Origin: a virus
Length of the DNA: 42,765 bases
IMG/VR virus record: IMGVR_UViG_3300045988_007228
Coordinates: 1-42,765 of that record
Reading direction: 5' to 3' (one strand)
Shown here: one piece after another, positions 2,721 through 24,720 of the stretch
Position numbering within the stretch: the first letter of the stretch is position 1
Layout of the letters: each line of letters starts with the position of its first letter
The notes under the pieces: generated by a model
What the model was told of the DNA's origin: nothing
Databases searched by the model: none
The model's input: the letters and a program-made list of their open reading frames with translations, nothing else
Translations under genes and position numbers: made by a program

Positions 2721-2804
2721 TATGCTGGAAGTGCGAGGGTGCAGGGGCTTTCGCGTGTGTACCTCCTTTCTTTTCCCATTTTCCCATCTCCTTTTCTCTT
2801 GGCG

Positions 2805-2832
2805 CCCACGCAGCGGGGGGCTGCTGCGTGGG
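2805..2832 (+). promoter_or_regulatory. Perfect 10-bp GC-rich hairpin in the prp-scaffold gap (function unknown)
   Basis: cccacgcagc (2805-2814) / gctgcgtggg (2823-2832) with an 8-nt G-rich loop and no T-run. Preceded by a CT-only tract around 2762-2800. Confidence 0.4.
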
Positions 2833-2944
2833 TATCTATGCCGCCGCGAGGCGCACTGCAGCGATGGACTGCAAGTGCCGGTGCAACTCCGGCTGACGGC
2901 GACAGGGTCGTGGCCTACCACAGATTTTTGACGGAGGCATCCTT

Positions 2945-3991
2945 ATGCGATTTGACATCAAGGCACTGGCTATGCTGCATGGCCTGCAGGTGTTCGGCGG
3001 CGAAGGCGGCGCGGGTGGCGCGGCCGGAGGCTCTACCGGAGCGGGCGCAGGTGCAGATGGCGCAGGCGCTGCGGGCGTAACGGCTCCCGACGCCGGGGAG
3101 CGCATCCTGACCGGGCTTGGTGTCCCGGCGGACAAGATCAGCAAGCGGTCGAGAGCGCGCGTATCGGCCATGCACCGTGACGACGGGGCAGCGGCAGAGG
3201 CGGCGCAGACGCAGGACGACGCTGCAAATGGCACCGATGACGGGCAGGAAATGCCGAAGCGCCTGACGTGGGACGAGATCATGGCAGATCCCGAGTACAA
3301 CGAGCAGGCGCAGAAGATGATGCAGAAGCGGCTGGCAAAGTCGAAGAAGTCCGAGCAGGCGCTCAAGGACCTGGCGCCGGCATTGGAGCTGATGGCGCGC
3401 AAGTACGGCATCGAAGCAGAGGATATCTCCAAGCTGGACGTGCAGGCGCTGAACAAAGCTGTGACCGAGGATAAGGCGTACTACGAGGAGCGGGCGGACG
3501 AGCTCGGAATCCCCGTCGAGGAGGCCATGCGTATCGACCAGCTGGAGCGGCGCAACAAACTGCTGGAGCACCAGAACGAGCAGACGCTTGAGCAGCGCAG
3601 ACTGCAGGAGCATTTCGACGGGCTGGTGCAGCAGGCGGCGAAGCTGCAGGAGATGTATCCGGACTTTGACCTGCAGACGGAGCTGGAGAATCCGGTCTTC
3701 GCGCGGCTGACCGCGCCGGGCAGCCTGGTCAGCGTGGAGGACGCCTACTTTGCCGTGCACCGCAAGGAGATGCAGACGGCGGCGATGCAGGTGGCAGCGC
3801 AGAAGACCGCGCAGCAGATCAGCAACAGCATCCAGGCCGGGCAGCGCAGGCCGGCAGAGAACGGCAGCGCATCCCAGGCGGCATCCATTTCTGCCCCGAC
3901 GACGATGTCGCGCGCGAGACGCGACGAGATCAAGCGCCGCATGCGCAGCGCAGCGGCGAACGGGGAGAAGCTCTATCCCGGCACGTTCTGA
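2945..3991 (+). CDS. Scaffolding protein (putative)
   Basis: 348 aa between prp and the capsid gene. Gly/Ala-rich N-terminus followed by a long charged, coiled-coil-like sequence. N-terminal GLQVF/G motif resembles a Prp cleavage site. GGAGG RBS. Confidence 0.65.
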   Translation: MRFDIKALAMLHGLQVFGGEGGAGGAAGGSTGAGAGADGAGAAGVTAPDAGERILTGLGVPADKISKRSRARVSAMHRDDGAAAEAAQTQDDAANGTDDGQEMPKRLTWDEIMADPEYNEQAQKMMQKRLAKSKKSEQALKDLAPALELMARKYGIEAEDISKLDVQALNKAVTEDKAYYEERADELGIPVEEAMRIDQLERRNKLLEHQNEQTLEQRRLQEHFDGLVQQAAKLQEMYPDFDLQTELENPVFARLTAPGSLVSVEDAYFAVHRKEMQTAAMQVAAQKTAQQISNSIQAGQRRPAENGSASQAASISAPTTMSRARRDEIKRRMRSAAANGEKLYPGTF

Positions 3992-4048: not shown

Positions 4049-5155
4049 ATGAAGACCATTCTTTATTCCATGCTCGGCCTGCAGCTTTTCGCGGACGCGG
4101 GCACGCTGGTCAATGCGACCGGCAACTACGTCAACGCCTCGACCGGCACGACGACTGCGTTCGACGCAACGCACACGCTCGCGCCGGAGCTCAAGACCTT
4201 CTACGACACGGAGCTGCTGGAAAATGCCCGCGCCGAGATGTTTTATGCCCAGTTCGGCAAAAAGCAGGCGCTGCCGAAAAACCACGGCGGCACGGTCGAA
4301 TGGCGCAAGTGGAACACCTTCGAGAAGGCAGGTAAGCTGACCGAAGGCGTGATCCCGACCGGCCAGAAGTTTGGCGTGACCAAGCTCGAGGGAAGCATCA
4401 CCCAGCACGGCACGTACACCAGCATCACCGACCGCCTGGAGCTGCGCGCCTACGACGACGTGATCCTCGGCGCGACCGAGGAGATGGGCGCGAGCGCGGC
4501 CGAAACGCAGGAGACGCTCATCCGCGACGCGCTGCTGACCAACACGAACGTGCTCTACTGCGACAACATCAGCGCGGCCGGCGCGTATATCTCCACGCCG
4601 ACCTCCTGCGCCGAGATGGGCGCCGGCGGCGGCACGAGCGCTGCTGACGGCTACGCCTACCTGACGCCGGACATGATCGCCAAGGCGGTCACGAAGATGA
4701 AGAAGGACCGCGTGCCGACCATCAACGGCAAGTATTACGCCGTGATCCATCCGTCCGTCGCCTACGACCTGCGCAAGTCCAACGAGTGGATCGAGGCGCA
4801 CAAGTATGCCCAGCCGGACGAGATCTATAACGGCGAGATCGGCGAGCTGCACGGCGTGCGCTTCATCGAGAACACCTTCGCGCCCGTCCTGACCGGCACG
4901 GGCTACAAGAATAAGAGCGAAGGCGCGACCTACGCGACCTACTTCTTCGGCAAGGAGGCCTTCGGCATCATTGATCCGGAGGGCGGCGCGCTGGAGATGA
5001 TCGTGCACGACAAGTCCGAGATCGGCGGCCCGCTGAACCAGTTCAGCACCATCGGCTACAAGTTCGAGACCAATGGCGCGACCGTGCTCTACCCCGAGCG
5101 CCTGCTGCGCGTGATGAGCACGTCTGCTTACAGCGCCACGGACGAAGCCAACTGA
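4049..5155 (+). CDS. Major capsid protein (HK97-fold type)
   Basis: 368 aa directly after the scaffold gene. N-terminus MKTILYSMLGLQLF/ADAG carries a Prp-type LQxF/A site. The sequence resembles phage major capsid proteins (by eye). Confidence 0.8.
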   Translation: MKTILYSMLGLQLFADAGTLVNATGNYVNASTGTTTAFDATHTLAPELKTFYDTELLENARAEMFYAQFGKKQALPKNHGGTVEWRKWNTFEKAGKLTEGVIPTGQKFGVTKLEGSITQHGTYTSITDRLELRAYDDVILGATEEMGASAAETQETLIRDALLTNTNVLYCDNISAAGAYISTPTSCAEMGAGGGTSAADGYAYLTPDMIAKAVTKMKKDRVPTINGKYYAVIHPSVAYDLRKSNEWIEAHKYAQPDEIYNGEIGELHGVRFIENTFAPVLTGTGYKNKSEGATYATYFFGKEAFGIIDPEGGALEMIVHDKSEIGGPLNQFSTIGYKFETNGATVLYPERLLRVMSTSAYSATDEAN

Positions 5156-7894: not shown

Positions 7895-8585
7895 TTACCC
7901 GCAGACGTATGCAGTGACCGGCAGCGCAGAGGAGCAGCTTGCCCAGCTGCGCTCGTACATCTGGCAGCTCGTGGACGTGCTCAATCAGGCAGACGACGGG
8001 AACGAGGCTGGAATCGGCGCTGCAGATACTGCCGCGCTCCGTACAGAGCTGGAAAAGCTGCGAAAGGCGTTGCGGGATCTGGAAGCAAAGAGCGGGCACG
8101 GCCTCCCGAGCGGCGGAACGGCCGGGCAGACGCTGACGAAACTATCCGAAAGCGACTATGACACGGGCTGGCGCACTCCGGCCGGCGGCGGAAGCGGCGG
8201 AGGCGTAGACTATGTAACCGAGCAAGGCTTGACCGGCAAGTGGACGTGGCGCAAATGGGCATCCGGCATCGCCGAGATGTGGGCAACGTTCGACGTGGGC
8301 GAGTTGGAGATGAAAACGCAGACATGGGGTGCACTGTATACCGCATCGTGGATGGGCCTCGCGGTAAATAAGGCAGCACGCCAATACCCGTTTGCTTTTG
8401 TCGCAAACCCGGTCGTGTCGGCGACGCCAACGGTTGGTAGTGGCAACATTTGGCTCGCCACAAACACGGAAAACGATACAGGTACGCGGCTTACGCATGC
8501 CCCGGCGTATCAGTGCGTGAGAGCATCTGACGCGACGGTTAATAGCCCGCAGATCAGCTACTACGTCGTGGGCAAGTACAAGTAA
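7875..8585 (+). CDS. Tail fibre-like protein
   Basis: Start ATG 7875 (or 7881) overlaps the upstream stop. Coiled-coil N-terminus. The string LPSGGTAGQTLTKLSESDYDTGW resembles a motif common in phage fibre proteins (recalled from memory). Confidence 0.55.
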   Translation: MCMLTFDYPQTYAVTGSAEEQLAQLRSYIWQLVDVLNQADDGNEAGIGAADTAALRTELEKLRKALRDLEAKSGHGLPSGGTAGQTLTKLSESDYDTGWRTPAGGGSGGGVDYVTEQGLTGKWTWRKWASGIAEMWATFDVGELEMKTQTWGALYTASWMGLAVNKAARQYPFAFVANPVVSATPTVGSGNIWLATNTENDTGTRLTHAPAYQCVRASDATVNSPQISYYVVGKYK

Positions 8586-9967: not shown

Positions 9968-12900
9968 ATGACAGTCAAGAAAGCAGCAATCTCCATTGGC
10001 GATTGGCTCAAGAGCACGGGATTCTCCGCCGAGAAAACGCTTGCTTCGGCGCAGGAGCAGCGGAAAAACCTGCTGCAGCAGATGGACAACGCGAATGCAT
10101 CGTATCTAACCGGCGAGAATCGCGGCGCGCTGCAGAACGCATTCAGCAACTATCAGGCGACCATGAACGTGCTTCGCGGCGCCGGCTATGACACCGGAAA
10201 TGACGTCGACGTTCTGCGCAGAGCCGTGCACTCGTCCTTCGACTTCCAGAACCAGTTCAAGGATGAAAACGACTTCAACGTGTCGTATGCCTACCCGAAG
10301 AAATACAAGGGCAAGACCCGCACGGACGTGAATGCGGCGCTCGCGCAGCTCAAGAACACGCCGGGGGCCGAGGCGGAATATGACTGGCTGAACAAGAACC
10401 AGATGAATTACTGGTCTGCGGACGAGCTGAAGGCGCAGATCGGCGCGTGGCAGAACGAGATTTCCGGCATCGAACGGCAGCGCCGGAATATGCCGCGCAT
10501 GGCAGCTGGGAGCACAGACGCAGACTATGCCAAGCGGCAGCAGGAGGCGCTCGCGCTCTCGGGGCAGATCGATGAGCGAAAAGCGAAGATCGGGAAAGCG
10601 CAGAGCCTGCTCACGCGGAAGACCTACGATGACGAGATCAGCAAGTGGGACACGCAGATGCAGAGGGCGCTCTCCGACTACAGCAAGGCGCTGAGCGTGA
10701 GCGAGAGCGCGAACACGGAGATGGCGATGGCCGGGAACTCCGCATTTGTGGTGCAAAACAGTGACTATGCCACAAACGCGCGCAACACGGTGCGCAGCTT
10801 CGAGCAGCAGCTGCGTGATTACGGCTACAGTGACCAGCAGATTAACGGCATCCGCAACTACGCGCTCACGCAGCAGCACGCAAACGAGGCTTCGGAAATG
10901 GCACAGCAGGCAGCACAGGAGGCCAAGGAGCATCCGTGGCTTTTTTCCGCCATGTCTGTCGGCACGAATATGATGGCCGGAGCGGGTGCGCTCGACATTG
11001 CGGCACAGAATGCGCTGAACGGGACAGACCCGTTCACGGGCGAAAAAATGGCCGTCGACCGTTATACGAAATCCATGGTGCCGAGCACGGTGACGAACAC
11101 CATCCGCGGGAGCGTTTCCGAGGACATGAGCGGCATTGGGTCGTTCCTGTACAACACCGGCATGAGCATGGCAGACAGCCTGGCGACGCTGGCCGTCGGC
11201 GGCGCGACCGGCCTGCACGGCGCGGCGGACGTGATCCTCGGCGGCGCGGCGGCATCTCAGGCAATCACGGATGCGTATGACCGCGGTGCTTCTGACTCAC
11301 AGGCCATGTCGGTCGGCCTGCTCTACGGAACGGCCGAGGCGCTGTTTGAGCACATCAGCCTTGGTAAGCTGCGCACGTTCCATACGTCGGCGGCCGCCGG
11401 GAAGAAGACCGCGAAGACGCTGGTTAAGGATATGCTCAAGCAGAGCTTTGTGGAAGGCAGCGAGGAAGTCTGCACGGACATCGCAAACGTTATCTCCGAC
11501 GCGATCGTGATGGCCGACAAGAGCGAGATCAACCAGACGATCGCCGCCTATCAGGCAGACGGCATGAGCGAGGACGAGGCAACGCGCAGGGCGTGGCTTG
11601 ACTGGCTCGGACATACGGCGCAGGACTTTGCCGGAGGCATGATCTCCGGCGGCGTGATGACCGGCGGCGACATGGCGCTCAACGCCGGGATGCGAAGCGC
11701 GAATTACCGCGAGACCGGCCGACAGATCACGGCCAACGACTACGCGGACATCCTCCGCCACGCTGCAGAGGAAAGCGGCGACGAAAACCTCCGGAAGCTG
11801 GCCGGGAAGAAGCAGACGAACCGCAACACCGGCAAGCTCTACGAGGCGACACAGGAAGCAAATCTCACACAGGCAGTCTCTGACCGTCTGGGTGCGCTCG
11901 GCACGCCAGAAAACGACGTGCAGGAGCTGACCGGCCTCGTGGTCAAGCAAATCAAGGGGCAGGAGCTGACGGGCAAGGAACAGCGAAAATTTGACGCCAG
12001 CAAGCAGGCACAGCGCGCAGCGAGCGAGTATGCGTCCCTGTTCACGCGGGATGCAGACCGGACCACGAACGCATGGGCGCGCAGCCATATGCGTGACGCA
12101 GCCGAGCTGGAGCGCAACGCGATCTATGGCGGGGCGCGCAAGACTGACGCAGGGCAGACGCAGATGCATCATGCGGAGAAGAACGCCGAGGTGCAGGTAA
12201 ACGGTGAGGCCGCGCAGGTGCAGGCGCTTCGATATGACCAGGAGAGCGGCAGCGTGGAGCTGTCCGTGAAGGCCAAAAACGGCGATGTGCAGCGCGTTTC
12301 CGTGAAGGACGCCAAGCTGCCGGAGGGCACGCGCCTGCTCGCCGAGAGCGCGGAAAAATACGGCGAGACCGCGCCGCAGATGTACGCCAACTACCAGAAC
12401 GGGCAGGACGTGGAGCGCTACGCCAGCGCCTACGAGGTGGCATACTCTTACGGCCGTGCGGGCGTGAAAAACTACGCTGTGCTCGAGAACAGCGGCGCAG
12501 CATCGTATCTGACACCGGAGCAGCGGAAATTTGCCTACGAGACCGGCCTTGCCGCGGCACGCAGGGAATCGGACGCAAAGAGCGCGGCGGCCAAGAGCAG
12601 CGAAATTCAGGCCGGCAGCGTGACGCTGGAAGGCGGAAAGCTCGGAAACGTGACGCTCGCCGCCGTGAACACGGCCGGCCTGACGCGCAAGCAGACGGCG
12701 TCGATCGACGTGGCGCGCAAGGTGGCCGAGGCGACCGGCGTGAACGTCGTGTTCTTTGAATCGCAGACCGGAGAGGACGGCAAATACCTCGGCATGAACG
12801 GCGCATACCGCGATGGCACGATCTATCTGGACGTGAACGCAGGGAAGAACAACGTGGACACTGGCGAGACGGCCATCCTGAAGACGATGTCGCACGAGCT

Positions 12901-15900
12901 GACGCACTTTATCCAGCAGAACAGCGGCCAGTATGAGGCGCTGAAGGAATTTGTGACGAACCATGTGCTCGAGAGCGGCGACAGCATCGAGCGCCTTGCC
13001 CGGCAGAAGCTCGACAACGACTCGACCGGCGAGCTGACGATGGACGGCGCGATGGACGAGGTCGTGGCCGATGCGTGCGAGATGATGCTGCGCAACACCG
13101 AGGCCGTGCAGCGGCTGGCGAATGAGAACCGCAGCCTTGCCGAGAAGATCCGCGACTGGATCGGCGACTTCGTCAAGAAACTGCGTGCTGCGTTTAAGGG
13201 CGACCACGCGACGCACGACGAGGCGAGAGCCATGCTCGACCGCATGGTGGAGCTGCAGAAGATCTGGGACGATGCGCTGGTGGACGCGGCGAAGGTGAAT
13301 GCGGGGCGCGCCGGGGAGATTGCAAGCAACGGCGTGCAGGAATCGTCTCGCGGGAAGTACTGGCGGCCTGACCTGAATCAGCAGGAATGGTCGCTTTTGA
13401 ACCGGCGAATGGAAAAAGAACTCGACAGCGGCAAACAATATCTTGACGAATCCACAAAGTGGCTGTACGCTGAAGAAAAGGGTGTGAAGGTGTTCGCCTT
13501 GTACGGGGTGGGAGATGGTACTGAGGCGACCACACTGTATGCGGTCGGCGGAAAACAAGCCGCGCTGCAGAATGCGAATATTGCAGAATATGTTGAGAGG
13601 AGCAGAGAATATGACAGAGATGGACGATCTGTTGATTCGTGGGTTGAGTTGCTTCGGCGTAAGAAAGGGAGCAGGGGCAGAAATCTATCTCAGGGTCAAG
13701 GGCCAACCGGAGCTTCAGGAACGGCTCATGGACTATATGGCGGATCACCGCGAGGCAACGGCGGAAGAACTTCTGGACGTGGCTCGGAGAATCAGCGCAA
13801 AGTAAAAGAGCAGTTCTCCCTCCGCGAACCGGTGGAGCAGGTGCGTGATCTTGTCGCCGTGCATGGCCTGACGGAGCAGAACCTGCGTGGCGCACTCGCG
13901 CTCGGCGGATTGCCGATGCCAAGTATCGCGGTCGTAAAAGCTGCGCAAGGGCACAGCAAGTACGGCCCGATTTCCATGGTGTTCGGCAGGGAGAGTATTG
14001 ACCCGCAGGTTGACCCCAGGAACAAAATCTACGGCGGGGATGCCTACACGCCGACGGCACCGGCAGTGGAATATCCGGTGAACTACGACCGGATGCGCGC
14101 CGTGGAAAACCGAATCTCTGAGCTGAGCAAAAGCGTCGCCGGCGGTGTGTTCTGGAACAGCACCGCGCTTCAGCGCGCCGGTGCCGGCGAAGAGAGCAGT
14201 ATAAGCGCCGAAGAGATGGCACAGAAACTTGCCAGAGACGACAGCGTGCGCGCGGCCTATCTGGCCGATCATGGGGAAACGCTCGAGCCGGTCATGCAGA
14301 CAAAGGAATTCAACCGATACGGCAATGACGCGCTGGCGAAACTGGTGCAGAAAATCGGCGTGCAGGAGCTCGCCCACGTTGAAGCGGACATGGAAACCGG
14401 GGACTATCAGTCTGCGCGAGAGATCGAAGACACGGTGCGCCAGATTATCCGCGACAGCTACGAGGAACAGCACCGCAGATTTCTGGACCGAAAGCCGGAA
14501 CTGAAGGAAAAGCGGCTTGACCACTTCATGGATAACAATGTCCATACTTCCACGGTTGAGGATTTCATCCAAGATGCGTGGGCATTTTACGAAGATCAGG
14601 GCGCTACAGCGGACGAAGTAGACCGATTGGCTACCAGCGACAAATTGCACGAGGCGACGGATACTGAGGACGTGAAGGCGTGGCTGCTGCCACAGCTGAA
14701 ATCTGTTTTTGGCGAGCCCGGCATTTACAACGGGAAGGAGCGCTATACCGCTTCTGGAGACAGACGCAGCTTTTCGCAGCTTCATTGGGAATACACGCTC
14801 GAGAACATTGTGAGTGCGATGGCGGAAACCCAGAAGGAGCGCGGCGGCCAGACGTGGGGGACGTCGGCCGGAGCTATGCAGGCTGTCAGCGCCGAGGACT
14901 TTTCCAGCATTGATGAAGTGAAGGCTGCGAGCGGCAGACTCGGCAAAGTGGAAGGTGAGCAGTATGAAGCGGCGAAGAATGCTGTTGAAAATCTGATCGA
15001 TCAGGCGACACGCGCCGTTATGCGAGAGACGCGGCCGCACGCCGACAATTCGTTCGATGAAAGAGAAATTATCGGCGATGTTATGATGGAAGCGGCGAAG
15101 GGCAAGCGGACGGCGCGGGCCATTCAGCAGGCTTTTGCGAAAGAGGGATATTCGGTCAGTGAAGAAACTGCTCGCCGGATTCAAGAAGTGTATCAGGCGG
15201 CGGCTGCACTTTCGACGGAATATTTTGAGGCGAAGCCGCAGAGAGCGGTCGGCTTTGACGAGGTGAAAGTGGCCATTGTGCCGGACAACATCAACGCAGA
15301 GCTGAAACAGCAGCTTGAGGCCGCCGGTGTGCCCGTGCAGGAATACCGCGCCGGTGACGAGGGGCAGCGTCTTCGGATTCTGAACTCGGATAAATCGTGG
15401 CAGTTTTCCGAGCGCGACTATTCCTACGAGATACTGACAGCAAAGCCGGATATGCGTGTGACGAACGTGGAAGACCGTGTGTCATACCGGCCGGCACGCG
15501 AGGCACGCAAGGAAATCGTCGCGCGCGCGATCGCAAATGCGAAGAAAATCGGCCGGACGAACGAAAACGGCAATGCCGTGGTGCGCGTGGCAGACACGGG
15601 CGACGAGGTGATCTTGAGCGCGAAAGGGCTGCGGCACGGGCTGGACAGGCGGTTCTCTGTGAATGCGCCGGTGACGCTGAAAGCCGGTGAAATCATCCGG
15701 AATGCCATCCGCATCAACGAATTCACGCCGGAAAACGCGCAGGTGGATGCAAGCTATGCGCTGATCGGTGCAGCCAAAAACGCAAAAAACGAACCGTACA
15801 TCGTACAGTTCGTTGTAAACCGCATTTCCAATGAGGTGACAGACGTGGACGTGCTGTATGCAGTGAATGCAAAAAAAGAGCCGGGTGCATTGCTGCCAGA

Positions 15901-18900
15901 CGTCACCGGCACGGATGTGCCAGCTATTCTTACCGACTCTGCTATCAGTATACGCTCGCTCCTGGACTATGTCAATCGGTATTTCCCGGATGTTCTGCCG
16001 GAAAGTGTGCTCCGGCATTATAGCTACGAGCGCAGACCTGCTGGGAAACTCGGAGAGAGTGCGCTTTATCAGCACCGCGACGACACGCGGACAGACCGCG
16101 ACGTGCTCTCCGATGCTGCGGACGGCGACGCGGCCAACGTGCGCGAGATGGAGATGCTGCGCGATTACCGGGAGAAACTGCAGAAATACAGCTCGCTCAC
16201 ACGGAGGCTGGAGCAGCAGCGCGAGCTTGCGCAGAACGCGGAAAGCAAGGAGGAGCGCCTGAAGGCGAGAAACCGCGCGGACAACCTGGCTGCGCAGGTG
16301 AGCCGAGCGGACGCGCAGCTCACGCGGATGCAGAACGCGAAACCGCTGCGCGAGCTGGTGGCGCGCGAGCTGAAGACGCGCGACAGCCTGGCTAAGGAAA
16401 ACGCCATGCTGCGCGACCGCGTGGAGTATTTGCGTGGGCAGATGCAGCGCACGAAAGAGGCAACCACAGACCCGAAAGCCGTGCGGGAAGCCGCAAAGGA
16501 TATCATTGAGCGGACCGGCAGCAGCATCGGCGTGGACGAGGTGATGAGCCAGCTGCAGGAGCTGTACGACGGCATTGCCCGCGCGACCGGAGACAACGGG
16601 CTTACCTACGCGGAGATTCAGCAGCGCGCGGACGATCTCGCACACGACATTTTGAACGACGTGACTGCCGTTGACGACACGATGTACCGCGAGTATGAAG
16701 ACCTGCGGAGGTATTTCAAGGGTCAGCAGCTCGTCGTGTCCGCGGCTGACCGCGGGGAAATTCCGGACTTCGGAGATTTCCGACGGAGAAACATGGGCCG
16801 AATGCGGCTGAAAAACGGCGAGCGGACGAACGTTGACCAGGTTTACGCAGAGCTGAGTGAGCTGTACCCAGAATTCTTTGACCAGAACCGCGAGAGCCAG
16901 CCGAGCGACCAGCTATACCGCATTGCCGATGTGCTGGACGCGGTGTACTCCGTGAACGAGTACAACCCAAACGCGCAGTATATGCGCGAAGCGACGCAGA
17001 GTGTGAGCAACGAGATCCTTGAGCAGTTTTTCGACCTGCCGCAGCAGAGAACGTTTGCCGACCGGCAGGCGAAGAAGGACGAACAGCAGAAGACGCACTA
17101 CCTCAACCAGATCAACGAGCTGCGCAAGGCCAATGACACGCGCATCGCGGAGTTGCGGGCGCAGAACCGCAAACGGCTGCAGGAAGCCATAGCAAGAGAG
17201 CGCGAGAAACGCGACGAGCAGATTGCGCGGCTGAAAGACAGGAACGCGGCAGATAAGGCGCGCCGCGAGGAAAGCGCGGCCGTGGCGAAATACCGCCCAC
17301 GCATCGAGCAGAAGGCGAAGCGCCTGAGCGATTGGCTGCTGAAAAACAGCGATAAGGAGCACATCCCGGAGCCGTTGAAGCTGGCAGTGGGCGAGTTCCT
17401 GGAATCCATTGACTTTACAAGCAAACGTGCGCTGGACGGCGGCGCGCTGACGAAAAAGGACATTCAGCGTTCGCTCCGGTATACTGACCGGATGCAGAAG
17501 CTGCTGGACAGCCTGCGTGGGCAGAACGAGGACGGCACGAGCGACCTCGGGCTGTATCTGGACATTCCGGACGGCTTCCTCGAGGAGATGCAGACGCATA
17601 TCAGCATTGCTGCCGATATCATCAGTCAGAACCCAGGAGAGAGCGTTGTCAGCAAGATGAAACTGGAGCAGCTGCAGCAGCTCGACCGGATGCTCACGAT
17701 CCTGACGCGCAGCATCCAGAACGCGAACAAACTCAAGGCAAATGCGCACTTTGAGACTGCACGGCAGGCGGCGCAGGCGACGGTGCTGGAGCTCGACCGG
17801 CTGGGGCAGGCCAAAGGAAGATCGCAGCGCGGAGAGAAAGTGGCTGGTTTCTTCAGCTGGGAGAACACGACACCGTACTACGCTTTCCAGCGCTTCGGTG
17901 AGGGCGGCAAGGCGATCTTCGAGGCACTGTCGGCCGGCTGGGATCAGATGGCCTTCAACACGAAGTCGGTCATGAGATTCACGGAGCAGACATACAAGCC
18001 GGAAGAAGTAAAGGCGTGGTCGAAGGAAACGCACACGATCGAGCTCGAAAGCGGAAAGACCGTGAAGATGACGACTGCGCAGATGATGGCGTTTTACTGC
18101 CTGTCGAAGCGCGAGCAGGCCGTCGGCCATCTCCTTGGCGGCGGTATGCGCGTGGAGGACATCCAAAACAGTGGGCGCAAGGGGAACATCAAGCAGGCGA
18201 AGCCGTTCCTGCTGACGCAGGAGGACATCATCAAGATCAACGGCGCGCTCACAAAGCGGCAGCGTGAGGTGGCGGACAAGCTGCAGAAGTACATGACGCA
18301 GCAGGGCAGCGAGTGGGGCAACCGCGTGTCGATGGAACGCTTTGGATATCGCGCGTTCACTGAGGAGAACTACTTCCCCATCGAGACGATGGACTCCGAC
18401 CGCGACGAGAGGGGCGTCCCGCAGAAAGAGAACGATATGTTCCGCCTACTCAATATGTCCGCGACGAAGAGCCTCGTCTACAAGGCGAACAACGCGCTCG
18501 TCGTTCACGACATCTTCGATGTGTTTGCAAACCACATGACGGACATGGCAAAGTATGACGCGCTGGCGCTGCCGATCCTCGACGCGATGAAGTGGTACAA
18601 CTACCGCGAGAAGCAGAAGCTTGAAAACGGTCACGTGCTCACGACGACGGTGCAGCGGTCGCTCGAACAGGCATACGGCACGGACGCCAACAAGTATTTC
18701 ACGACGTTCATCAAGGACCTGAACGGCGTGAACGAAGGCGGCCGCGGGGAGGGCTTTGCGAAGAAGATGCTCTCCAACTACAAGGTGGCGGCCGTGGCTG
18801 CGAACCTGCGTGTGGCGCTGCTGCAGCCGACAGCGTATGTGCGCGCGGTCGGCGTGATGGACCCGAAGTATCTCGTAAAGGCGTTCGCGGAGGGAAAAAG

Positions 18901-20755
18901 CGCATACAAAGAGGCAGAGGCGAACAGCGGCATCGCTCTGTGGAAGCAGATGGGCTTTTACGACACGAACATCGGCCGGGGTGTCCGCGACCAGATCAAG
19001 AACGCCGGGACGTGGAAGGACTCGACGGTCGAATTCCTTATGATGGGCGCAGAATGGGCAGACCGGCTGACGTGGGGACGCTTGTGGAACGCCTGCAAAG
19101 CGGAGGTGCGTGACAAGCAGAAGCTGACCGGCGACGCGCTGCTAAAGGCGACGGCCGAACGCTTCCGGGAGGTCATCTACTCGACGCAGGTGGTGGACAG
19201 CACGATGACACGCAGCCAGGCGATGCGCGCGACCGGCGTGTACGGTGCTGTATCTACGGCCTTTATGTCGGAACCGACGCTGTCGTACAATCTGCTGCTC
19301 AAGGCGTATACGGACTACACGGCGGAGCTGCGCGCGACCGGCGACAAAAAAGAAGCGTGGAGAAACGCAAGCGGGAAAATCGCAAGAGCGCTGGCGACCT
19401 ATCTTGTGTCGGCGACTGCTTCGGGGCTTGCCGAATCAATCGTGGACGCCTGCAGAGACGACGACGAGTACGCCACGTGGTTGGAGAAGTACCTGAGCGC
19501 GCTGATCGGCGCGAAATACAAAGACGGAAAGTTTTCCGGCGTGAACCCGCTTGAAAGCAACCTGTTCATGGACGTGGATATCCTCTCGAAGCTCCCGATC
19601 CTCAAGGATTTCATGTCGATGATCTCCGGGTACGAAAACGACCGGATGGACACGGAATGGATCAGCAACCTGATCGACGCATATCGGATCTGGGACGAGA
19701 CGATCAAGCTGGAGACAGGTGAGCTGGACGAGCCGACGGACGTGACGTACAACGGCAACATGACGCTGTACGGAAAGATCTACAAGACACTCAAGGCCGT
19801 TTCGCAGGCGACCGGCCTGCCGATCAGCGCGGCGAGCCGCGAGGTTGTAACGCTCTGGAACACCATCGCCGGAGCTGTCGGCAAGGGCGACGAGTGGACG
19901 ATCCATACCTATGACTCCGGGCCGGAGAGCCAGATCAAGTACGGCCTGATGGACGGTTACCTCACGCGCGAAGAGGCGCAGCAGCTGCTGGTCGAAAAAG
20001 GGCTCGCGGACAACGAGGATGATGCGTACTGGAAGGTTGACAAGTGGGCGACCGGCGAAGGAAAGTACGACGAGGCGCTCGCTGCGGTGCTCAGCGGCGA
20101 CAAGACCGCCTTCGATGCGCAGGCCAAGGAGTTGAAAGAGCACGGCATCGGCGAGAAGCAGCTGCAGTCTGCGGTGCGCTCGCAGGCAAAGGAGTGGTAC
20201 GTCGGCGACGACGACGGAAAGCGCTCGATCACGAAGGAACAGGCGCTGAAGATCCTGCAGCAGTACGGAGGAAAAGACGCCGACGAGGCGCAGAAACTGG
20301 TGCAGAAGTGGACGTGCGAGGTCGTGACCGGCACGGACTACGACGACATCAAGGATCTGTATCTCGACGGGAAGCTCACGCGGTCTCGCGCGGTAGACAT
20401 GCTGACGCGCTACGGCGGGATGAAGCAGGAGGATGCGCAGAACAAGATCGACACGGCGGACTTTGTGAAGGCACATCCGGAATGCGACGGCATCAGCGTT
20501 GAGGCCGTGCAGAAGTACAACGAGCAGGCGAAAGCGGCCGGCCTGGACGCGGGGACGTTCTGGCAAGCATATCAGTTTAAAAACGACGCAAGGACTACGC
20601 GCGACAGCAACGGCAAGGCCATCAGCGGTCAGGGAGCAATGGACAAGGTCGCTGCGTACATCGACGGGCTGGACATCAGTTCGGCGCAGAAAAACGCTCT
20701 GTTTTTGTGCTTCTACAGCCAAAAATCGCTCGGGAAGATCCGCTGGAGCAATTAA
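9968..20755 (+). CDS. Giant 3,595-aa multidomain protein; polyvalent-protein-like, probable virion-packaged/ejected protein
   Basis: Single uninterrupted ORF of 10.8 kb. Gly-rich hydrophobic segments around aa 325-480. HExxH (SHELTHF, nt 12893-12907) in a zincin-like context. Several blocks resemble LPD-type modules of polyvalent proteins (by memory). Long coiled coils. C-terminal helical repeats. Confidence 0.8.
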   Translation: MTVKKAAISIGDWLKSTGFSAEKTLASAQEQRKNLLQQMDNANASYLTGENRGALQNAFSNYQATMNVLRGAGYDTGNDVDVLRRAVHSSFDFQNQFKDENDFNVSYAYPKKYKGKTRTDVNAALAQLKNTPGAEAEYDWLNKNQMNYWSADELKAQIGAWQNEISGIERQRRNMPRMAAGSTDADYAKRQQEALALSGQIDERKAKIGKAQSLLTRKTYDDEISKWDTQMQRALSDYSKALSVSESANTEMAMAGNSAFVVQNSDYATNARNTVRSFEQQLRDYGYSDQQINGIRNYALTQQHANEASEMAQQAAQEAKEHPWLFSAMSVGTNMMAGAGALDIAAQNALNGTDPFTGEKMAVDRYTKSMVPSTVTNTIRGSVSEDMSGIGSFLYNTGMSMADSLATLAVGGATGLHGAADVILGGAAASQAITDAYDRGASDSQAMSVGLLYGTAEALFEHISLGKLRTFHTSAAAGKKTAKTLVKDMLKQSFVEGSEEVCTDIANVISDAIVMADKSEINQTIAAYQADGMSEDEATRRAWLDWLGHTAQDFAGGMISGGVMTGGDMALNAGMRSANYRETGRQITANDYADILRHAAEESGDENLRKLAGKKQTNRNTGKLYEATQEANLTQAVSDRLGALGTPENDVQELTGLVVKQIKGQELTGKEQRKFDASKQAQRAASEYASLFTRDADRTTNAWARSHMRDAAELERNAIYGGARKTDAGQTQMHHAEKNAEVQVNGEAAQVQALRYDQESGSVELSVKAKNGDVQRVSVKDAKLPEGTRLLAESAEKYGETAPQMYANYQNGQDVERYASAYEVAYSYGRAGVKNYAVLENSGAASYLTPEQRKFAYETGLAAARRESDAKSAAAKSSEIQAGSVTLEGGKLGNVTLAAVNTAGLTRKQTASIDVARKVAEATGVNVVFFESQTGEDGKYLGMNGAYRDGTIYLDVNAGKNNVDTGETAILKTMSHELTHFIQQNSGQYEALKEFVTNHVLESGDSIERLARQKLDNDSTGELTMDGAMDEVVADACEMMLRNTEAVQRLANENRSLAEKIRDWIGDFVKKLRAAFKGDHATHDEARAMLDRMVELQKIWDDALVDAAKVNAGRAGEIASNGVQESSRGKYWRPDLNQQEWSLLNRRMEKELDSGKQYLDESTKWLYAEEKGVKVFALYGVGDGTEATTLYAVGGKQAALQNANIAEYVERSREYDRDGRSVDSWVELLRRKKGSRGRNLSQGQGPTGASGTAHGLYGGSPRGNGGRTSGRGSENQRKVKEQFSLREPVEQVRDLVAVHGLTEQNLRGALALGGLPMPSIAVVKAAQGHSKYGPISMVFGRESIDPQVDPRNKIYGGDAYTPTAPAVEYPVNYDRMRAVENRISELSKSVAGGVFWNSTALQRAGAGEESSISAEEMAQKLARDDSVRAAYLADHGETLEPVMQTKEFNRYGNDALAKLVQKIGVQELAHVEADMETGDYQSAREIEDTVRQIIRDSYEEQHRRFLDRKPELKEKRLDHFMDNNVHTSTVEDFIQDAWAFYEDQGATADEVDRLATSDKLHEATDTEDVKAWLLPQLKSVFGEPGIYNGKERYTASGDRRSFSQLHWEYTLENIVSAMAETQKERGGQTWGTSAGAMQAVSAEDFSSIDEVKAASGRLGKVEGEQYEAAKNAVENLIDQATRAVMRETRPHADNSFDEREIIGDVMMEAAKGKRTARAIQQAFAKEGYSVSEETARRIQEVYQAAAALSTEYFEAKPQRAVGFDEVKVAIVPDNINAELKQQLEAAGVPVQEYRAGDEGQRLRILNSDKSWQFSERDYSYEILTAKPDMRVTNVEDRVSYRPAREARKEIVARAIANAKKIGRTNENGNAVVRVADTGDEVILSAKGLRHGLDRRFSVNAPVTLKAGEIIRNAIRINEFTPENAQVDASYALIGAAKNAKNEPYIVQFVVNRISNEVTDVDVLYAVNAKKEPGALLPDVTGTDVPAILTDSAISIRSLLDYVNRYFPDVLPESVLRHYSYERRPAGKLGESALYQHRDDTRTDRDVLSDAADGDAANVREMEMLRDYREKLQKYSSLTRRLEQQRELAQNAESKEERLKARNRADNLAAQVSRADAQLTRMQNAKPLRELVARELKTRDSLAKENAMLRDRVEYLRGQMQRTKEATTDPKAVREAAKDIIERTGSSIGVDEVMSQLQELYDGIARATGDNGLTYAEIQQRADDLAHDILNDVTAVDDTMYREYEDLRRYFKGQQLVVSAADRGEIPDFGDFRRRNMGRMRLKNGERTNVDQVYAELSELYPEFFDQNRESQPSDQLYRIADVLDAVYSVNEYNPNAQYMREATQSVSNEILEQFFDLPQQRTFADRQAKKDEQQKTHYLNQINELRKANDTRIAELRAQNRKRLQEAIAREREKRDEQIARLKDRNAADKARREESAAVAKYRPRIEQKAKRLSDWLLKNSDKEHIPEPLKLAVGEFLESIDFTSKRALDGGALTKKDIQRSLRYTDRMQKLLDSLRGQNEDGTSDLGLYLDIPDGFLEEMQTHISIAADIISQNPGESVVSKMKLEQLQQLDRMLTILTRSIQNANKLKANAHFETARQAAQATVLELDRLGQAKGRSQRGEKVAGFFSWENTTPYYAFQRFGEGGKAIFEALSAGWDQMAFNTKSVMRFTEQTYKPEEVKAWSKETHTIELESGKTVKMTTAQMMAFYCLSKREQAVGHLLGGGMRVEDIQNSGRKGNIKQAKPFLLTQEDIIKINGALTKRQREVADKLQKYMTQQGSEWGNRVSMERFGYRAFTEENYFPIETMDSDRDERGVPQKENDMFRLLNMSATKSLVYKANNALVVHDIFDVFANHMTDMAKYDALALPILDAMKWYNYREKQKLENGHVLTTTVQRSLEQAYGTDANKYFTTFIKDLNGVNEGGRGEGFAKKMLSNYKVAAVAANLRVALLQPTAYVRAVGVMDPKYLVKAFAEGKSAYKEAEANSGIALWKQMGFYDTNIGRGVRDQIKNAGTWKDSTVEFLMMGAEWADRLTWGRLWNACKAEVRDKQKLTGDALLKATAERFREVIYSTQVVDSTMTRSQAMRATGVYGAVSTAFMSEPTLSYNLLLKAYTDYTAELRATGDKKEAWRNASGKIARALATYLVSATASGLAESIVDACRDDDEYATWLEKYLSALIGAKYKDGKFSGVNPLESNLFMDVDILSKLPILKDFMSMISGYENDRMDTEWISNLIDAYRIWDETIKLETGELDEPTDVTYNGNMTLYGKIYKTLKAVSQATGLPISAASREVVTLWNTIAGAVGKGDEWTIHTYDSGPESQIKYGLMDGYLTREEAQQLLVEKGLADNEDDAYWKVDKWATGEGKYDEALAAVLSGDKTAFDAQAKELKEHGIGEKQLQSAVRSQAKEWYVGDDDGKRSITKEQALKILQQYGGKDADEAQKLVQKWTCEVVTGTDYDDIKDLYLDGKLTRSRAVDMLTRYGGMKQEDAQNKIDTADFVKAHPECDGISVEAVQKYNEQAKAAGLDAGTFWQAYQFKNDARTTRDSNGKAISGQGAMDKVAAYIDGLDISSAQKNALFLCFYSQKSLGKIRWSN
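13611..13805 (+). CDS. Nested out-of-frame 64-codon ORF inside the giant gene (candidate overlapping gene)
   Basis: GAGGAG 8 nt upstream of ATG 13611. Translation MTEMDDLLIRGLSCFGVRKGAGAEIYLRVKGQPELQERLMDYMADHREATAEELLDVARRISAK is globular-looking. The codon-position GC pattern favours this frame over the giant frame here. Confidence 0.5.
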   Translation: MTEMDDLLIRGLSCFGVRKGAGAEIYLRVKGQPELQERLMDYMADHREATAEELLDVARRISAK

Positions 20756-20792: not shown

Positions 20793-20823
20793 TATTGTAG
20801 AATCAATGGAAGGAGGCCACCAC

Positions 20824-22779
20824 ATGACTATCACAATCGCAGACGGCCGCGGGGCGCTGTGGCAGTGGGACACCGGGCGGCGCTTGCGCGTGGGCAGCGG
20901 CGTGGAGCAGGTCCACTATCAAAATAGGTGCTTTGGCCGCAGCGTGGACGTGAACGTCGGCACAGACGGCACGGCCATCATCCCGGACGAGTTGCTGCAG
21001 GACTGCCACACGCTGACGGCCTACGCCTACGTCACCGACGACACCGGCGCGTACACGATGGTGCAGCAGGACTTTGCAGTGCACAAGCGCGCGAAGCCCG
21101 CCGGGTATACATACACCCCGACAGACCAGATGACGTTGCGGACGATCCAGCACCAGATCGGCGACCTTGCTGACCTGACAACGGAGGCAAAGGAAAATCT
21201 TGTTGCGGCCATCAATGAGGTGGCACGGATGGGCGGACGCATGAGCTTGCGCGTAGCGGACGACTACATCCAGTACAGCACAGATAGCGGAAGCGCGTGG
21301 CAAAATCTCATCGCCGTGGCCGAGCTCAAGGGTGCGGACGGTTCGCAAGGCCCAAGAGGCGAGCCCGGCGCGAAGGGTGACCCCGGCGAGAAAGGCGACC
21401 CCGGCGCAAAGGGCGATACGGGCGCAACAGGCCCGGCGGGTCCGCAAGGCCCAGTTGGCGCTCCGGGCAAGAATGGCGCGGATGGCAAACCGGGAGCGGC
21501 TGGTGCTGACGGTGCAGCAGGTGCTGACGGAAAAAGTGCCTATGAATATGCGGCTGAAGGCGGATACGGCGGAACTGAAGAAGAATTTGCTTCTGAACTT
21601 GGCAGACTTTTCGGCGGAAGCACTGCAACGGTTCTTTCGGATAACCTTTTTGATAAAAGTATCGCAACTACAGGCAAGATTTTTTATCATTCCTCTTCTG
21701 GACCGTCTTTGGTTGACGTTAGTAATGGCTTTTATGCTTATGTTCCCCTTCGTGGAGCGGGTACTTATACAGCAATGATTTGTTGGGTTAATCATGGCGA
21801 ATCGTATGCAAAGAGAGTACCGATTTTGAAAGCAGATAAAACTTTCCTGCAAAATGTCACAGGTACTCTTACTAAAATAGATTCAAATTTCGGGTATATC
21901 GAATTTACAATTACAGAAACAATGATATCCAACGGAGCGGCTCTTTATGCTTTTGACGGTTCAACCAATGTTTCACCCACACTTGATGAAGTAATGATTG
22001 TAAAGGACAGAGAATATCCGAGCAAATATATCCCTTACGGCTATATAGAAGTGGAGGTCGAAGGCGCTGACCCAGTGAACATACTTAGCGGAAAGACCGC
22101 CGTATTTCTTGGCGACAGCATTTGTGCAGGAACGACAACTCTTGAGAGTGCGGCGGAATATGGCTATGGCTGGGGCGGACTTATCGGTGAAGCAAACAAA
22201 ATGAAATGGAAAAACTTTGGCAGAAACGGCGGAACTATTGCACCGATTTCTTCTGTTGAAGAAGCAAGGCGGGTTCCGGTACAGGTCGATTTGGCGCTTG
22301 CACAATACCCTGACGCCGATTATGTAATTTTTGAGGGAGGGTGCAACGATGCGGACACCCTTGGAGAAAGCAATCTCGGAACATTTTCTGCGAGCGGATA
22401 TGCTCCCGAAGACACTTCGACTTTCACGGGAGCTTTTGAGGTTCTTGTTCTTAAAATACTCAATTCCTTCCCTAACGCCAAAATCGGATATATCGTTGCA
22501 CAGAAAATGGGGGTTTCGGATGATTACGGTTCTGCAAACAACCGTTATCGAAAATTTTTCGACAGAGCTGTTGAAATCTGCCAAAAGTGGGGAATCCCCG
22601 TTATAGACCTTTGGAACGAAACTCCGCTAAACCCAAAACTTGCGATTCATTACGACAGCTCTCTTACCGCAGACCAAGCAAACGAAAACGAAAAATGCTA
22701 TACGGACGGACAGCACCTTACTCTTACAGGTTACAAAAAACTGCAAAACCCTGTTGAAGAATTTATGAGGAAACTGTAA
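20824..22779 (+). CDS. Tail fibre/spike with collagen-like stalk and C-terminal SGNH/GDSL hydrolase domain
   Basis: Start ATG 20824 has GGAAGGAGG 7 nt upstream (the track start 20806 is less likely). About 23 G-X-Y triplets. SGNH blocks FLGDSICAG, GGCNDA and DGQHLT in the C-terminal part. Confidence 0.75.
   Translation: MTITIADGRGALWQWDTGRRLRVGSGVEQVHYQNRCFGRSVDVNVGTDGTAIIPDELLQDCHTLTAYAYVTDDTGAYTMVQQDFAVHKRAKPAGYTYTPTDQMTLRTIQHQIGDLADLTTEAKENLVAAINEVARMGGRMSLRVADDYIQYSTDSGSAWQNLIAVAELKGADGSQGPRGEPGAKGDPGEKGDPGAKGDTGATGPAGPQGPVGAPGKNGADGKPGAAGADGAAGADGKSAYEYAAEGGYGGTEEEFASELGRLFGGSTATVLSDNLFDKSIATTGKIFYHSSSGPSLVDVSNGFYAYVPLRGAGTYTAMICWVNHGESYAKRVPILKADKTFLQNVTGTLTKIDSNFGYIEFTITETMISNGAALYAFDGSTNVSPTLDEVMIVKDREYPSKYIPYGYIEVEVEGADPVNILSGKTAVFLGDSICAGTTTLESAAEYGYGWGGLIGEANKMKWKNFGRNGGTIAPISSVEEARRVPVQVDLALAQYPDADYVIFEGGCNDADTLGESNLGTFSASGYAPEDTSTFTGAFEVLVLKILNSFPNAKIGYIVAQKMGVSDDYGSANNRYRKFFDRAVEICQKWGIPVIDLWNETPLNPKLAIHYDSSLTADQANENEKCYTDGQHLTLTGYKKLQNPVEEFMRKL
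21331..21536 (+). repeat. Collagen-like G-X-Y triplet repeat region within the fibre gene
   Basis: GADGSQGPRGEPGAKGDPGEKGDPGAKGDTGATGPAGPQGPVGAPGKNGADGKPGAAGADGAAGADGKS. Confidence 0.85.
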
Positions 22780-22919: not shown

Positions 22920-23048
22920 ATGGCCACATTTGAAGAGCAGTACAGGAAATACAGCACCAACGCATATTCAAAGGGCGATAAAGTCACACACAGTGGGAAA
23001 ACATGGATATCTGATGTTGAAAACAACGTGTGGGAGGCGGAGAGCTGA
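22920..23048 (+). CDS. 42-aa protein with a short carbohydrate-binding-like motif
   Basis: GGAGAAAGGAG RBS. MATFEEQYRKYSTNAYSKGDKVTHSGKTWISDVENNVWEAES resembles CBM5/12-type short beta-hairpin modules (by eye). The stop overlaps the endolysin start (TGATG). Confidence 0.45.
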   Translation: MATFEEQYRKYSTNAYSKGDKVTHSGKTWISDVENNVWEAES

Positions 23049-23908
23049 TGGAATTTGTTTCTTGCAACAAGGCCAATTACCGCGCCGGGCGCACGCAGCC
23101 GGTGCGGTACATCGTGATGCACTACACGGCAAACAACGGCGACACGGCAAAAAACAACTGCGACTACTACCACCGCGTGGGCGGCCTGCAGGCAAGCGCA
23201 CACTATTTCGTGGACGAGCACGGCGCGATGCAGTCCGTGCGCGAGGGCGACACGGCGTGGCACTGCGGCGCGCGGGCGTACTGGCACCCCGAGTGCCGCA
23301 ACGGCAACAGCATCGGCATCGAGATGTGCAGCCGCAAGCGCGCCGACGGCAGCTACTACATCAAGCCGGAGACCGTGGCAAACGCCGCGGCGCTGGCGCG
23401 GGAGATCATGCAGCGCTATGGCATCGACACGGAGCACGTTGTGCGGCACTACGACGTGACGGGCAAGCGCTGCCCCATGCCGTGGGTGGATGACCCGGCG
23501 CAGTGGACGGCATTTCTGGCCATGCTGACGCCGGAACACCCGAACGAAGAGGAGGATGAAAACATGGTAAAGTACAAGACGATTGATGACGTCCCTGAAT
23601 GGTACAGAAGTGAGGTTCAGGAATTGATGGATGCTGGCGCTCTGAAAGGCACTGGCAATGGAGCCATCGACATCTCTGAAGATGTCGTGCGCGGCGCGAT
23701 TATCGGCATGCGCTATGGCGAGGCACGCAATCCGCGCTACTACAGCCTGGACGACGTGCCCACATGGGCGCGCGAGGAGACGCAGAAGCTGATCGCCCGC
23801 GGCGCGCTGCAGGGCGACGGCAAGCACGCAATCAACGTCACGTATGACGCGCTGCAGGCGATGATCGTCTGTCAGCGGATGATTGACGCCGCTGGCGGCG
23901 GGAAGTGA
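23048..23908 (+). CDS. Endolysin: N-acetylmuramoyl-L-alanine amidase (Amidase_2/PGRP type) with two C-terminal wall-binding-like repeats
   Basis: YIVMHYTANNGDTAKNNCDYY...ASAHYFVD...SIGIEMC is typical of Amidase_2. Two repeats of about 45 aa (DDVPEWYRSEVQELMDAGALKG / DDVPTWAREETQKLIARGALQG). Confidence 0.85.
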   Translation: MEFVSCNKANYRAGRTQPVRYIVMHYTANNGDTAKNNCDYYHRVGGLQASAHYFVDEHGAMQSVREGDTAWHCGARAYWHPECRNGNSIGIEMCSRKRADGSYYIKPETVANAAALAREIMQRYGIDTEHVVRHYDVTGKRCPMPWVDDPAQWTAFLAMLTPEHPNEEEDENMVKYKTIDDVPEWYRSEVQELMDAGALKGTGNGAIDISEDVVRGAIIGMRYGEARNPRYYSLDDVPTWAREETQKLIARGALQGDGKHAINVTYDALQAMIVCQRMIDAAGGGK

Positions 23909-24644: not shown

Positions 24645-24720
24645 TGGTCCGAGTGAGAAGATTCGAACTTCCGGCCTCTTGAACCCCATTCAAGCACGCT
24701 ACCAACTGCGCTACACCCGG
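24645..24720 (-). tRNA. tRNA-Pro, anticodon GGG, CCA encoded
   Basis: Hand-folded cloverleaf. Acceptor CCGGGTG/CACTCGG (one G-U pair), D arm GCGC/GCGT, anticodon stem CTTGA/TCAAG, loop AUGGGGU (U33, G37), T arm GGAAG-TTCGAAT-CTTCT, discriminator A plus CCA. 76 nt. Confidence 0.85.

Follow-up and report, generated by a model that had tools for sequence, protein, structure and literature searches.

The subject of this work is a small gene that lies, in a different reading frame, wholly inside a much larger gene on the same strand of a viral DNA of 42,765 nucleotides (nt; IMG/VR record IMGVR_UViG_3300045988_007228, positions 1 to 42,765, hereafter the window). The enclosing gene is a 3,595-codon open reading frame (ORF) on the + strand (9968-20755, from the ORF list), referred to here as the giant ORF, which is situated in the structural module and codes for a polyvalent, multi-effector phage protein that is probably packaged in the virion. 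The nested gene (13611-13805, + strand) occupies the +1 frame of the giant ORF, begins with an ATG at 13611, ends with a TAA at 13803-13805 and encodes a product of 64 amino acids (aa). A Shine-Dalgarno (SD) sequence, GAGGAG, is read at 13597-13602 (+ strand) and is separated from the nested ATG by an 8-nt spacer. Start, ribosome-binding site and stop are all located within the giant ORF, in the other frame, and the GAGGAG-N8-ATG arrangement given by the original prediction, which had been made from the letters alone, was reproduced. This is the only copy of the nested-gene family in the window. Over the same bases (13610-13807, + strand) the giant frame encodes a Gly/Arg/Ser-rich linker that AlphaFold2 (AF2) predicts to be disordered. 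The linker is preceded by a domain here called U1 (13364-13609, + strand, giant frame) and followed by a PBECR5 nuclease domain (13808-14494, + strand; Pfam PF18814, aa 1281-1509 of the giant protein, E=3e-66), which starts one codon past the nested stop. U1 and the nested gene together make up a swappable cassette of 491 nt (13307-13797, + strand), the borders of which come from comparison with related phages.

The pattern of G+C content (GC) by codon position that is typical of coding sequence changes frame at about 13600. For the whole giant gene, GC at codon positions 1, 2 and 3 (GC1/2/3) is 0.61/0.41/0.77; in the region of the nested ORF the giant frame has 0.61/0.62/0.38 and the nested frame 0.63/0.38/0.62, values that agree with earlier counts by hand (38 percent for GC3 of the giant frame, 64/38/62 percent for the nested frame). 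The giant-frame GC3 is here the lowest of the whole gene: over 66-codon windows its mean is 0.77 (standard deviation 0.10), the gene-wide minimum of 0.35 is reached at 13577-13583, and the 40 lowest windows (40/40) are all located at 13508-13625, so that the stretch is indeed unusual relative to the rest of the gene. Among the alternate-frame ORFs across the giant gene, none besides the nested ORF has a coding-like GC pattern. The two products also differ in their predicted folding. AF2 models the 64-aa protein as four helices (residues 3-14, 19-29, 33-45 and 51-63) with a predicted local distance difference test (pLDDT) score of 92.8, in keeping with the compact helical protein that had been anticipated, whereas the giant-frame product of the overlap has a pLDDT of about 30 (residues 112-159). 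The small protein has an acidic composition; at its conserved polar positions (the EEQQ loop and AT.EE) the residues are acidic too, and none of its conserved residues is basic, which suggests a module for binding protein rather than DNA.

Frame-specific ratios of nonsynonymous to synonymous substitution (dN/dS) were calculated according to Nei and Gojobori (NG86) for three pairs of loci, window-L026, window-L001 and L026-L001. In the overlap, the nested frame gives dN/dS of 0.11, 0.13 and 0.09, in this order, at an aa identity of 81-83%, and the giant frame gives 1.16, 1.12 and 1.97 at an identity of 54-65%. In the 80 codons upstream, dN/dS of the giant frame is 0.12, 0.13 and 0.40 (aa identity 65-73%). 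Most substitutions in the overlap fall at position 3 of the nested codons (22/37, 19/33 and 23/42) and, together with the dN/dS values, this indicates that at about 13600 constraint passes from the giant frame to the nested one. In a set of 12 variants, nested-frame dN/dS is 0.09-0.55 in 33 of the 33 scorable pairs, and pairs consisting of phages only are still under nested-frame selection (0.11 for window-L026 and 0.23 for L041-L042). The ATG and a TAA or TAG stop are retained in every variant, and all divergent variants have an SD-like purine run 4-9 nt 5' of the ATG (GAGAGGAG, GGAAGGAG, AAAGGAG, AAGGAGG or AAAGGAAG). The nested frame is thus a real gene under purifying selection. The giant-frame linker that covers it, by contrast, appears to be unconstrained and is predicted to be disordered, and the constraint on the giant frame across the overlap would be only to contain no stop and to stay in register. 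Alignment of homologues, to which the original prediction had looked for a decision, finds both frames kept open, with a dN/dS of 0.09-0.13 in the nested frame against 1.1-2.0 in the giant one.

Comparison with related phages places this overlap in an exchangeable module. The flanks 12500-13306 and 13798-15000 are 94-98% identical across 17 viral loci, and the segment between them occurs in several forms. It is kept as in the window in L019-25; in L028/33/35 it is an unrelated cassette of 467 nt that encodes another upstream domain (U2) together with a homologue of the nested gene; a 671-nt MuF_C cassette, from which the nested gene is absent, takes its place in L029/30/31/34; and in L032 an in-frame deletion has left only an 89-nt remnant of the second cassette type. 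The differences in cassette length (24, 180 and 402 nt) are all multiples of three, and the module boundary 'KEQFSLREP' before PBECR5 is common to all cassette variants. GC is 0.51-0.555 over about 13300-13800 versus 0.60-0.65 in the flanks, and the dip coincides with the cassette, so that the low-GC patch of about 480 bp, previously read as an inserted module, matches a unit whose borders were defined independently. In the upstream part of the cassette (13307-13609), GC1/2/3 of the giant frame is 0.60/0.42/0.60, compared with 0.63/0.41/0.86 in the left flank, and in the same comparison the values for the nested ORF, when it is read in its own frame, are 0.64/0.39/0.62. As U1 and the nested gene share this profile, the cassette looks like one imported module of lower GC3 with two coding units in two frames.

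The upstream coding unit, U1, is predicted to form a helix, three strands and a helix (AF2 residues 12-93, pLDDT 67-86). Its giant-frame dN/dS is 0.12-0.40, and 14 columns are invariant and 16 further ones nearly invariant among 20 homologues. U1 had no match in Pfam and no significant fold match in the Protein Data Bank (PDB) by Foldseek, and its homology to U2 was not detected by hhalign (probability 0.1). A hit to RelE (2kc8), at rank 7 with E=0.14, was not accepted as evidence. The nested family, for its part, precedes PBECR5 in the window, a methyltransferase-like domain in L041, other sequence in L042 and LPD3 in L001, and the nested proteins of L056 and L062 are 80% and 72% identical to that of the window, the carrier giant proteins being merely 27-37% identical. 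Judged from these comparisons, the cassette is mobile between polyvalent genes via conserved flanks. Two hypervariable patches are also seen among phages that are otherwise 94-97% identical: one at 13300-13399 (nucleotide diversity, pi, of 0.147), which corresponds to the left cassette border and has two alleles, and one at 14100-14299 (pi 0.23) in PBECR5, near the end (14131) of the L018-type chromosomal fragment described below.

The small-gene family is found within very long ORFs in eight lineages, namely the window type, L026, L027, the L035 type, L041, L042, L056 and L062. L026 has 76% nt identity, the nested protein of L027 is beyond tblastn detection, and the L035 type, L041 and L042 carry the second cassette type, the nested protein of which is about 25% identical yet alignable. 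An IMG/VR scan gave 17 homologous giant genes and later scans added more; in viral contigs, the homologous giant ORFs have >1000-2750 codons and overrun both ends of the locus every time. The through-frame (-1 relative to the small gene) is open over the whole locus in 8/8 phage lineages, and the giant frame is open in 43/45 loci of the first set, including all phage loci, and in 15/15 metagenome loci that were found later. The chance of this was estimated in 20,000 trials, in each of which the 64-aa protein was held fixed and its synonymous codons were drawn anew according to the codon usage of the window. The giant frame of the window remained open in 0.068 of the resamplings; the chance first proposed was roughly 4 percent. 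Given the protein of each lineage, the chances are 0.068, 0.116, 0.044, 0.017, 0.029 and 0.027, and their product for the four least related lineages alone is about 1.4e-6. The open frame in eight lineages, at a low chance in each, and the cassette lengths that differ by multiples of three together support selection for keeping the giant frame open.

The 64-aa product has 30 homologues (54-98% identity, 49-72 aa), all annotated as stand-alone genes, one of which (P0010) bears the NCBI label 'Oscillospiraceae bacterium'. A profile search of 1.84e9 cluster representatives returned 122 clusters at 50% identity (E<=1e-3), about 110 of which are stand-alone proteins of 63-75 aa. A full-length in-frame family copy was not found in any protein of more than 200 aa among the 122 clusters, the three long matches spanning 20-30 profile positions. 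By fold, the one genuine match is to A0A8S5NB41, a phage protein that is likewise 64 aa long and uncharacterised, at a template modelling (TM) score of 0.91. GenBank phages gave no match in tblastn with two family members and a single weak, irrelevant match in blastn with the region; GTDB species genomes, scanned with a protein pattern and a conserved 33-nt DNA pattern, gave no true match, nor did viral contigs give any when searched with a distant family member. As gene callers forbid nested genes on the same strand, the family is invisible in phage genomes and shows only where the big gene is broken. We consider, from these searches, that the product belongs to an undescribed protein family. 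Rare members of 131 aa (P0057), 178 aa (P0035) and 145 aa (P0090) have U-like and four-helix domains in one frame, or four-helix domains in tandem; indels may have given rise to them, or they may represent another arrangement, in frame.

Gut bacteria have acquired copies of the small gene in their chromosomes on repeated occasions. The exact 64-aa sequence is present in 398 blocks of the assembly collection, and on long contigs this sequence and related ones stand by themselves in the intergenic space that separates housekeeping genes. At least ten such contexts were found: SbcD/FeoB; GDSL lipase/flavodoxin; BirA/GreA; an element splitting an Mn-catalase gene; Big_2 protein/ornithine decarboxylase; beside a tRNA synthetase; SLH protein/DUF2344; IspF/adenine deaminase; enolase/LysM; and HSP90/asparaginase. 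These orphan copies are fragments of polyvalent genes that have differing ends and each enclose the small gene (window equivalents 13233-14131, 13434-13850, 13268-13838 and 13181-13828). The minimal fragments (L007 and L045/L046) contain little beyond the SD and the ORF, and what precedes these is unrelated; in L045/L046 the shared sequence begins at the SD. In one lineage, L049/L050, the giant frame has a stop and the small ORF is intact, which argues that the small gene is retained for its own sake. Note also that the copy between SbcD and FeoB (L015 7824-8240; window 13434-13850) is 97-98% identical to a tract of low diversity in the phages; among eight close phages, pi falls to 0.0025-0.016 over about 13400-13800, compared with 0.059 in the flanks. 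This similarity suggests that phages and host copies exchanged sequence recently, possibly by means of the RecT/YqaJ system of the phage.

Taken together, we think it likely that this locus is a true dual-coding stretch within the gene of a phage polyvalent protein. Both products would be made from one late mRNA. Ribosomes translating the giant frame would read on and produce a disordered Gly/Arg/Ser spacer of about 65 residues, joining U1 to PBECR5, while other ribosomes would initiate internally, at the SD 13597-13602 and the ATG 13611, and make an acidic four-helix protein of 64 residues that ends at the TAA 13803-13805. Selection would act on the sequence of the small protein, and on the giant frame solely for the absence of stops and for register. 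U1 and the small gene would form a lower-GC cassette exchanged among polyvalent genes through their conserved flanks, and the fused giant ORF would now thread through the older small gene. We infer internal initiation on the giant mRNA from the conserved start signals, and the greater age of the small gene relative to the frame that reads through it from the polarity of constraint: the selection on the nested frame, set against an unconstrained and disordered linker in the giant frame, marks the small gene as the constrained and probably older unit, and its engulfment by a fused ORF fits this polarity better than its de novo overprinting. The explanations offered at the outset (overprinting, a captured gene, or an internal translation unit) are not mutually exclusive, and their common core is supported by the selection on the nested frame, by the open giant frame and by the nature of the low-GC patch as an inserted module that can be swapped.

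As to the function of the small protein, its retention in chromosomes fits a partner of polyvalent proteins that acts in trans, for instance as a chaperone, an antidote or a neutraliser synthesised in the producing cell, with the orphans kept to blunt incoming phage effectors; we put this forward as a tentative possibility. A longer scenario, which must be called doubtful, is that the family natively lives out of frame in polyvalent linkers as the phage's antidote or handler, that gut Clostridia stole it time and again, in places as a bare SD and ORF and at ten or more intergenic sites, as a defence by which incoming phage effectors are disarmed, and that phages re-exchange the cassettes with the host copies.

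Several observations weigh against the dual-coding reading or against parts of it. An immunity protein specific for PBECR5 was considered and rejected, as the nested family does not co-vary with the neighbouring domain; a specific pairing with PBECR5 is unsupported, given that the same family precedes the methyltransferase domain, LPD3 and other sequence. Phages with PBECR5 exist that lack an intact nested gene (the L029 type and L032). The profile and structure searches proposed for the 64-aa product, productive as they were in finding the 122-cluster family, returned no known family and no PDB match: nothing credible was obtained from Pfam, PHROGs, NCBIfam or PADLOC, and the best PDB hits had E=0.24 by sequence profile and E=2.9 by Foldseek fold. 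A sigma-70 consensus scan of 13100-14000 found no promoter site. Every IMG/VR locus comes from a single dataset (3300045988), and the abundance of chromosomal fragments is partly a matter of ascertainment, since the nested protein was the query. Finally, the low diversity at 13400-13800 (pi of 0.007 versus 0.059) could result from a recent sweep or exchange with hosts and not from dual-coding constraint.

Other explanations for the locus have to be compared with a dual-coding stretch. It is unlikely that the cassette is a selfish or neutral hitch-hiker, spread by recombination (for example with the phage RecT/YqaJ) between polyvalent genes and into chromosomes and useless to the phage, under which the giant frame would be open only since frame-breaking insertions kill the carrier. 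Such an element would be in line with a cassette that is better conserved than its carriers, with the match between the phage low-diversity tract (about 13400-13800) and the extent of a chromosomal copy (13434-13850), with the YqaJ, RecT and SSB encoded by the phage, and with the existence of phages that have no nested gene at the site (the L029 type and L032). It accounts for mobility but not for protein-level selection: a hitch-hiker needs neither the purifying selection on the protein, which persists in phage-only pairs, nor a conserved SD and ATG, nor a product that is predicted to be well folded. The cassette has, moreover, no recombinase or nuclease of its own, and the ends of the fragments are variable.

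We regard as very improbable a frameshift fusion, in which a +1 shift near 13600 would give a truncated N-terminal polyprotein ending in the four-helix domain, at the TAA 13803, with no independently initiated gene. The SD-like GAGAGGAG and the rare AGA, CGA and GGA codons just upstream could be read in this sense, as could P0057 and P0035, which hold U-like and four-helix domains in one frame. However, an ATG with a properly spaced SD is present in every variant, the minimal chromosomal fragments (L045/46 and L007) keep only the SD and the ORF, and about 110 of the 122 clusters are stand-alone proteins of 63-75 aa without any full-length in-frame copy above 200 aa. In addition, no slippery motif was seen on reading 13590-13615, no Rfam match lies in the region of the nested start, and the RNA fold there is unremarkable (z=0.46).

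Less credible still is that the giant frame alone is functional, the nested ORF being an untranslated by-product of a conserved low-complexity linker. High-GC genomes do yield many spurious alternate-frame ORFs, and the giant-frame motifs LYGGS and GRG..NQRGVKE recur; these motifs, however, coincide with the most conserved nested residues (DYMADHREATAEELL). The dN/dS of at least 1.1 in the giant frame versus about 0.1 in the nested one, the pLDDT of 30 versus 93, the survival of the nested ORF where the giant frame is broken (L049/50) and the absence of a coding-type GC pattern from every other alternate-frame ORF of the gene all speak against this. That the 3,595-codon ORF is really two genes with the small gene between them, the through-frame being open by chance or assembly error, can practically be dismissed: although the chance for the single sequence is not negligible (0.068), many contigs from different assemblies, and eight phage lineages that are independent of one another, have the frame open (joint chance about 1e-6), at the boundary the upstream part is not closed by a stop and the downstream part is not preceded by a start or SD of its own, and both the cassette swaps and the L032 deletion preserve the frame.

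A dual-coding stretch of this kind has partial precedents. In the spanin genes of lambda-type phages, the whole of Rz1 is contained within Rz, in its +1 frame, and the two proteins are both produced. The likeness is that the embedded gene is small, has a start of its own and shares the strand, but not the frame, of the larger phage gene that encloses it completely. Differently from Rz/Rz1, the enclosing frame here is an apparently unconstrained, predicted-disordered linker of a multi-domain protein of 3,595 aa and it is the embedded gene that is conserved; the 64-aa protein lacks both a lipoprotein signal and a lysis context; and the embedded gene rides a swappable cassette and also has orphan chromosomal copies. 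Small viruses have overprinted genes as well, for instance E in D and B in A of phiX174 (PMC8227390), and share with the present case that one frame has the composition and selection signature of an older gene, the product of the other frame being disordered. The present case differs in the 42.8-kb window, where no pressure on coding space is obvious, and in that the younger frame appears to be the long one, the reverse of what is usual.

Polyvalent proteins carry many effector and adaptor domains in one polypeptide and occur in phages and conjugative elements (Iyer et al., 2017; PMC5512222), and their cassette-like variability was already raised in the same paper. A search of that paper by term does not find 'overlapping', and the one passage with 'reading frame' deals with separate cassette ORFs. 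In its architecture the giant ORF agrees with the definition given there, and it is phage-borne and lies in the structural module: it contains PBECR5 and an HExxH motif (HELTH, seen in its translation), and its relatives have MuF_C, LPD3 and Methyltransf_23 at neighbouring positions. A conserved out-of-frame gene in an inter-domain linker is not part of the architecture as described. The polymorphic toxin/immunity systems (Zhang et al., 2012, as cited within PMC5512222) are similar in that variable cassettes are swapped via conserved flanks, that a small ORF is tightly linked to effectors, and that stand-alone copies occur in genomes without the large gene. By contrast, the small gene here overlaps out of frame, precedes the nuclease domain instead of following it and is of a type that does not co-vary with the effector domain.

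Nested out-of-frame phage genes are therefore already known (Rz/Rz1, phiX174; PMC8227390). What is new is that the enclosing frame is the linker of a polyvalent protein, that a whole undescribed family lives in this manner and has orphan copies in host chromosomes, and that the polarity appears to be reversed, a long frame having been laid over a short older gene. Polyvalent proteins can thus hide a second, better-conserved gene in a linker that looks like junk, and the locus offers a clean natural case of a long frame apparently overprinted on a short older gene, with many independent lineages for study. The chromosomal retention and the exchange of cassettes between phage and host lead to a testable hypothesis on injected phage effectors, namely that the small protein may interact with them or give protection from them. 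If gut Clostridia did capture an antidote in this way, this would be a new route to anti-phage immunity, and more generally the family might represent a new class of overlapping gene that stays hidden from standard annotation.

The wider setting of the giant ORF is that of a phage, as indicated by the portal, capsid and amidase genes that neighbour it. A P22/SU10-like portal is encoded at 410-2347 and a capsid protein at 4049-5155, and the giant ORF is followed by genes for a GDSL-lipase/collagen protein (20806-22779) and an amidase (23030-23908); a C5 methylase, YqaJ, RecT and SSB are also encoded in the 42.8-kb window. The window is phage DNA and apparently most of one phage genome. A tRNA gene (Rfam RF00005, 61 bits) is located on the - strand at 24648-24720, between the lysis and tail-like genes.

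Within the U1 coding sequence, TTGACG-N17-TACGCT is found at 13444-13472. It is invariant in 7/7 aligned copies and is retained in L007, which lost most of U1; with a score of 8/12, below the threshold of the consensus scan, it may be a candidate internal promoter for the small gene. Further downstream in the giant ORF, giant-frame GC3 is unusually low (0.56) at 15835-16023, and in the SbcD|FeoB locus a match to 15873-15977, a second piece of the giant gene, directly precedes the fragment with the nested gene and is tandemly duplicated (L015 7641-7695 and 7756-7810), a third, partial copy lying downstream (8301-8323).

We also would like to mention some features of the other chromosomal loci. 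In L001 (5418-5523 and 6812-6901) and L004 (5596-5635 and 6484-6523), the fragments are inserted between direct target repeats of 73+ nt and 40 nt, respectively, each of which contains the intrinsic-terminator hairpin of the upstream gene, and the right junction of L001 is at an 8-nt microhomology, GCGCGAGA. A shared insertion mechanism for the chromosomal fragments was dropped, direct repeats being absent at five other loci. The element that interrupts the Mn-catalase (CotJC-like) gene (L004 2471-2791 and 8148-8537; also in L005 and L006) is about 5.3 kb long; it carries an ABC transporter, a nested-gene fragment and a large serine recombinase and is reminiscent of the intervening elements excised during sporulation. 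In L059, a 183-kb contig from the human gut, two U1-type cassettes are found in tandem (2763-3224 and 3238-3753) in one chromosomal fragment. Just 5' of the chromosomal fragment in L047, a 24-nt inverted repeat (3483-3537, 96% complementary) surrounds TGcgTATAAT and looks like an operator over a promoter able to drive the orphan small gene.

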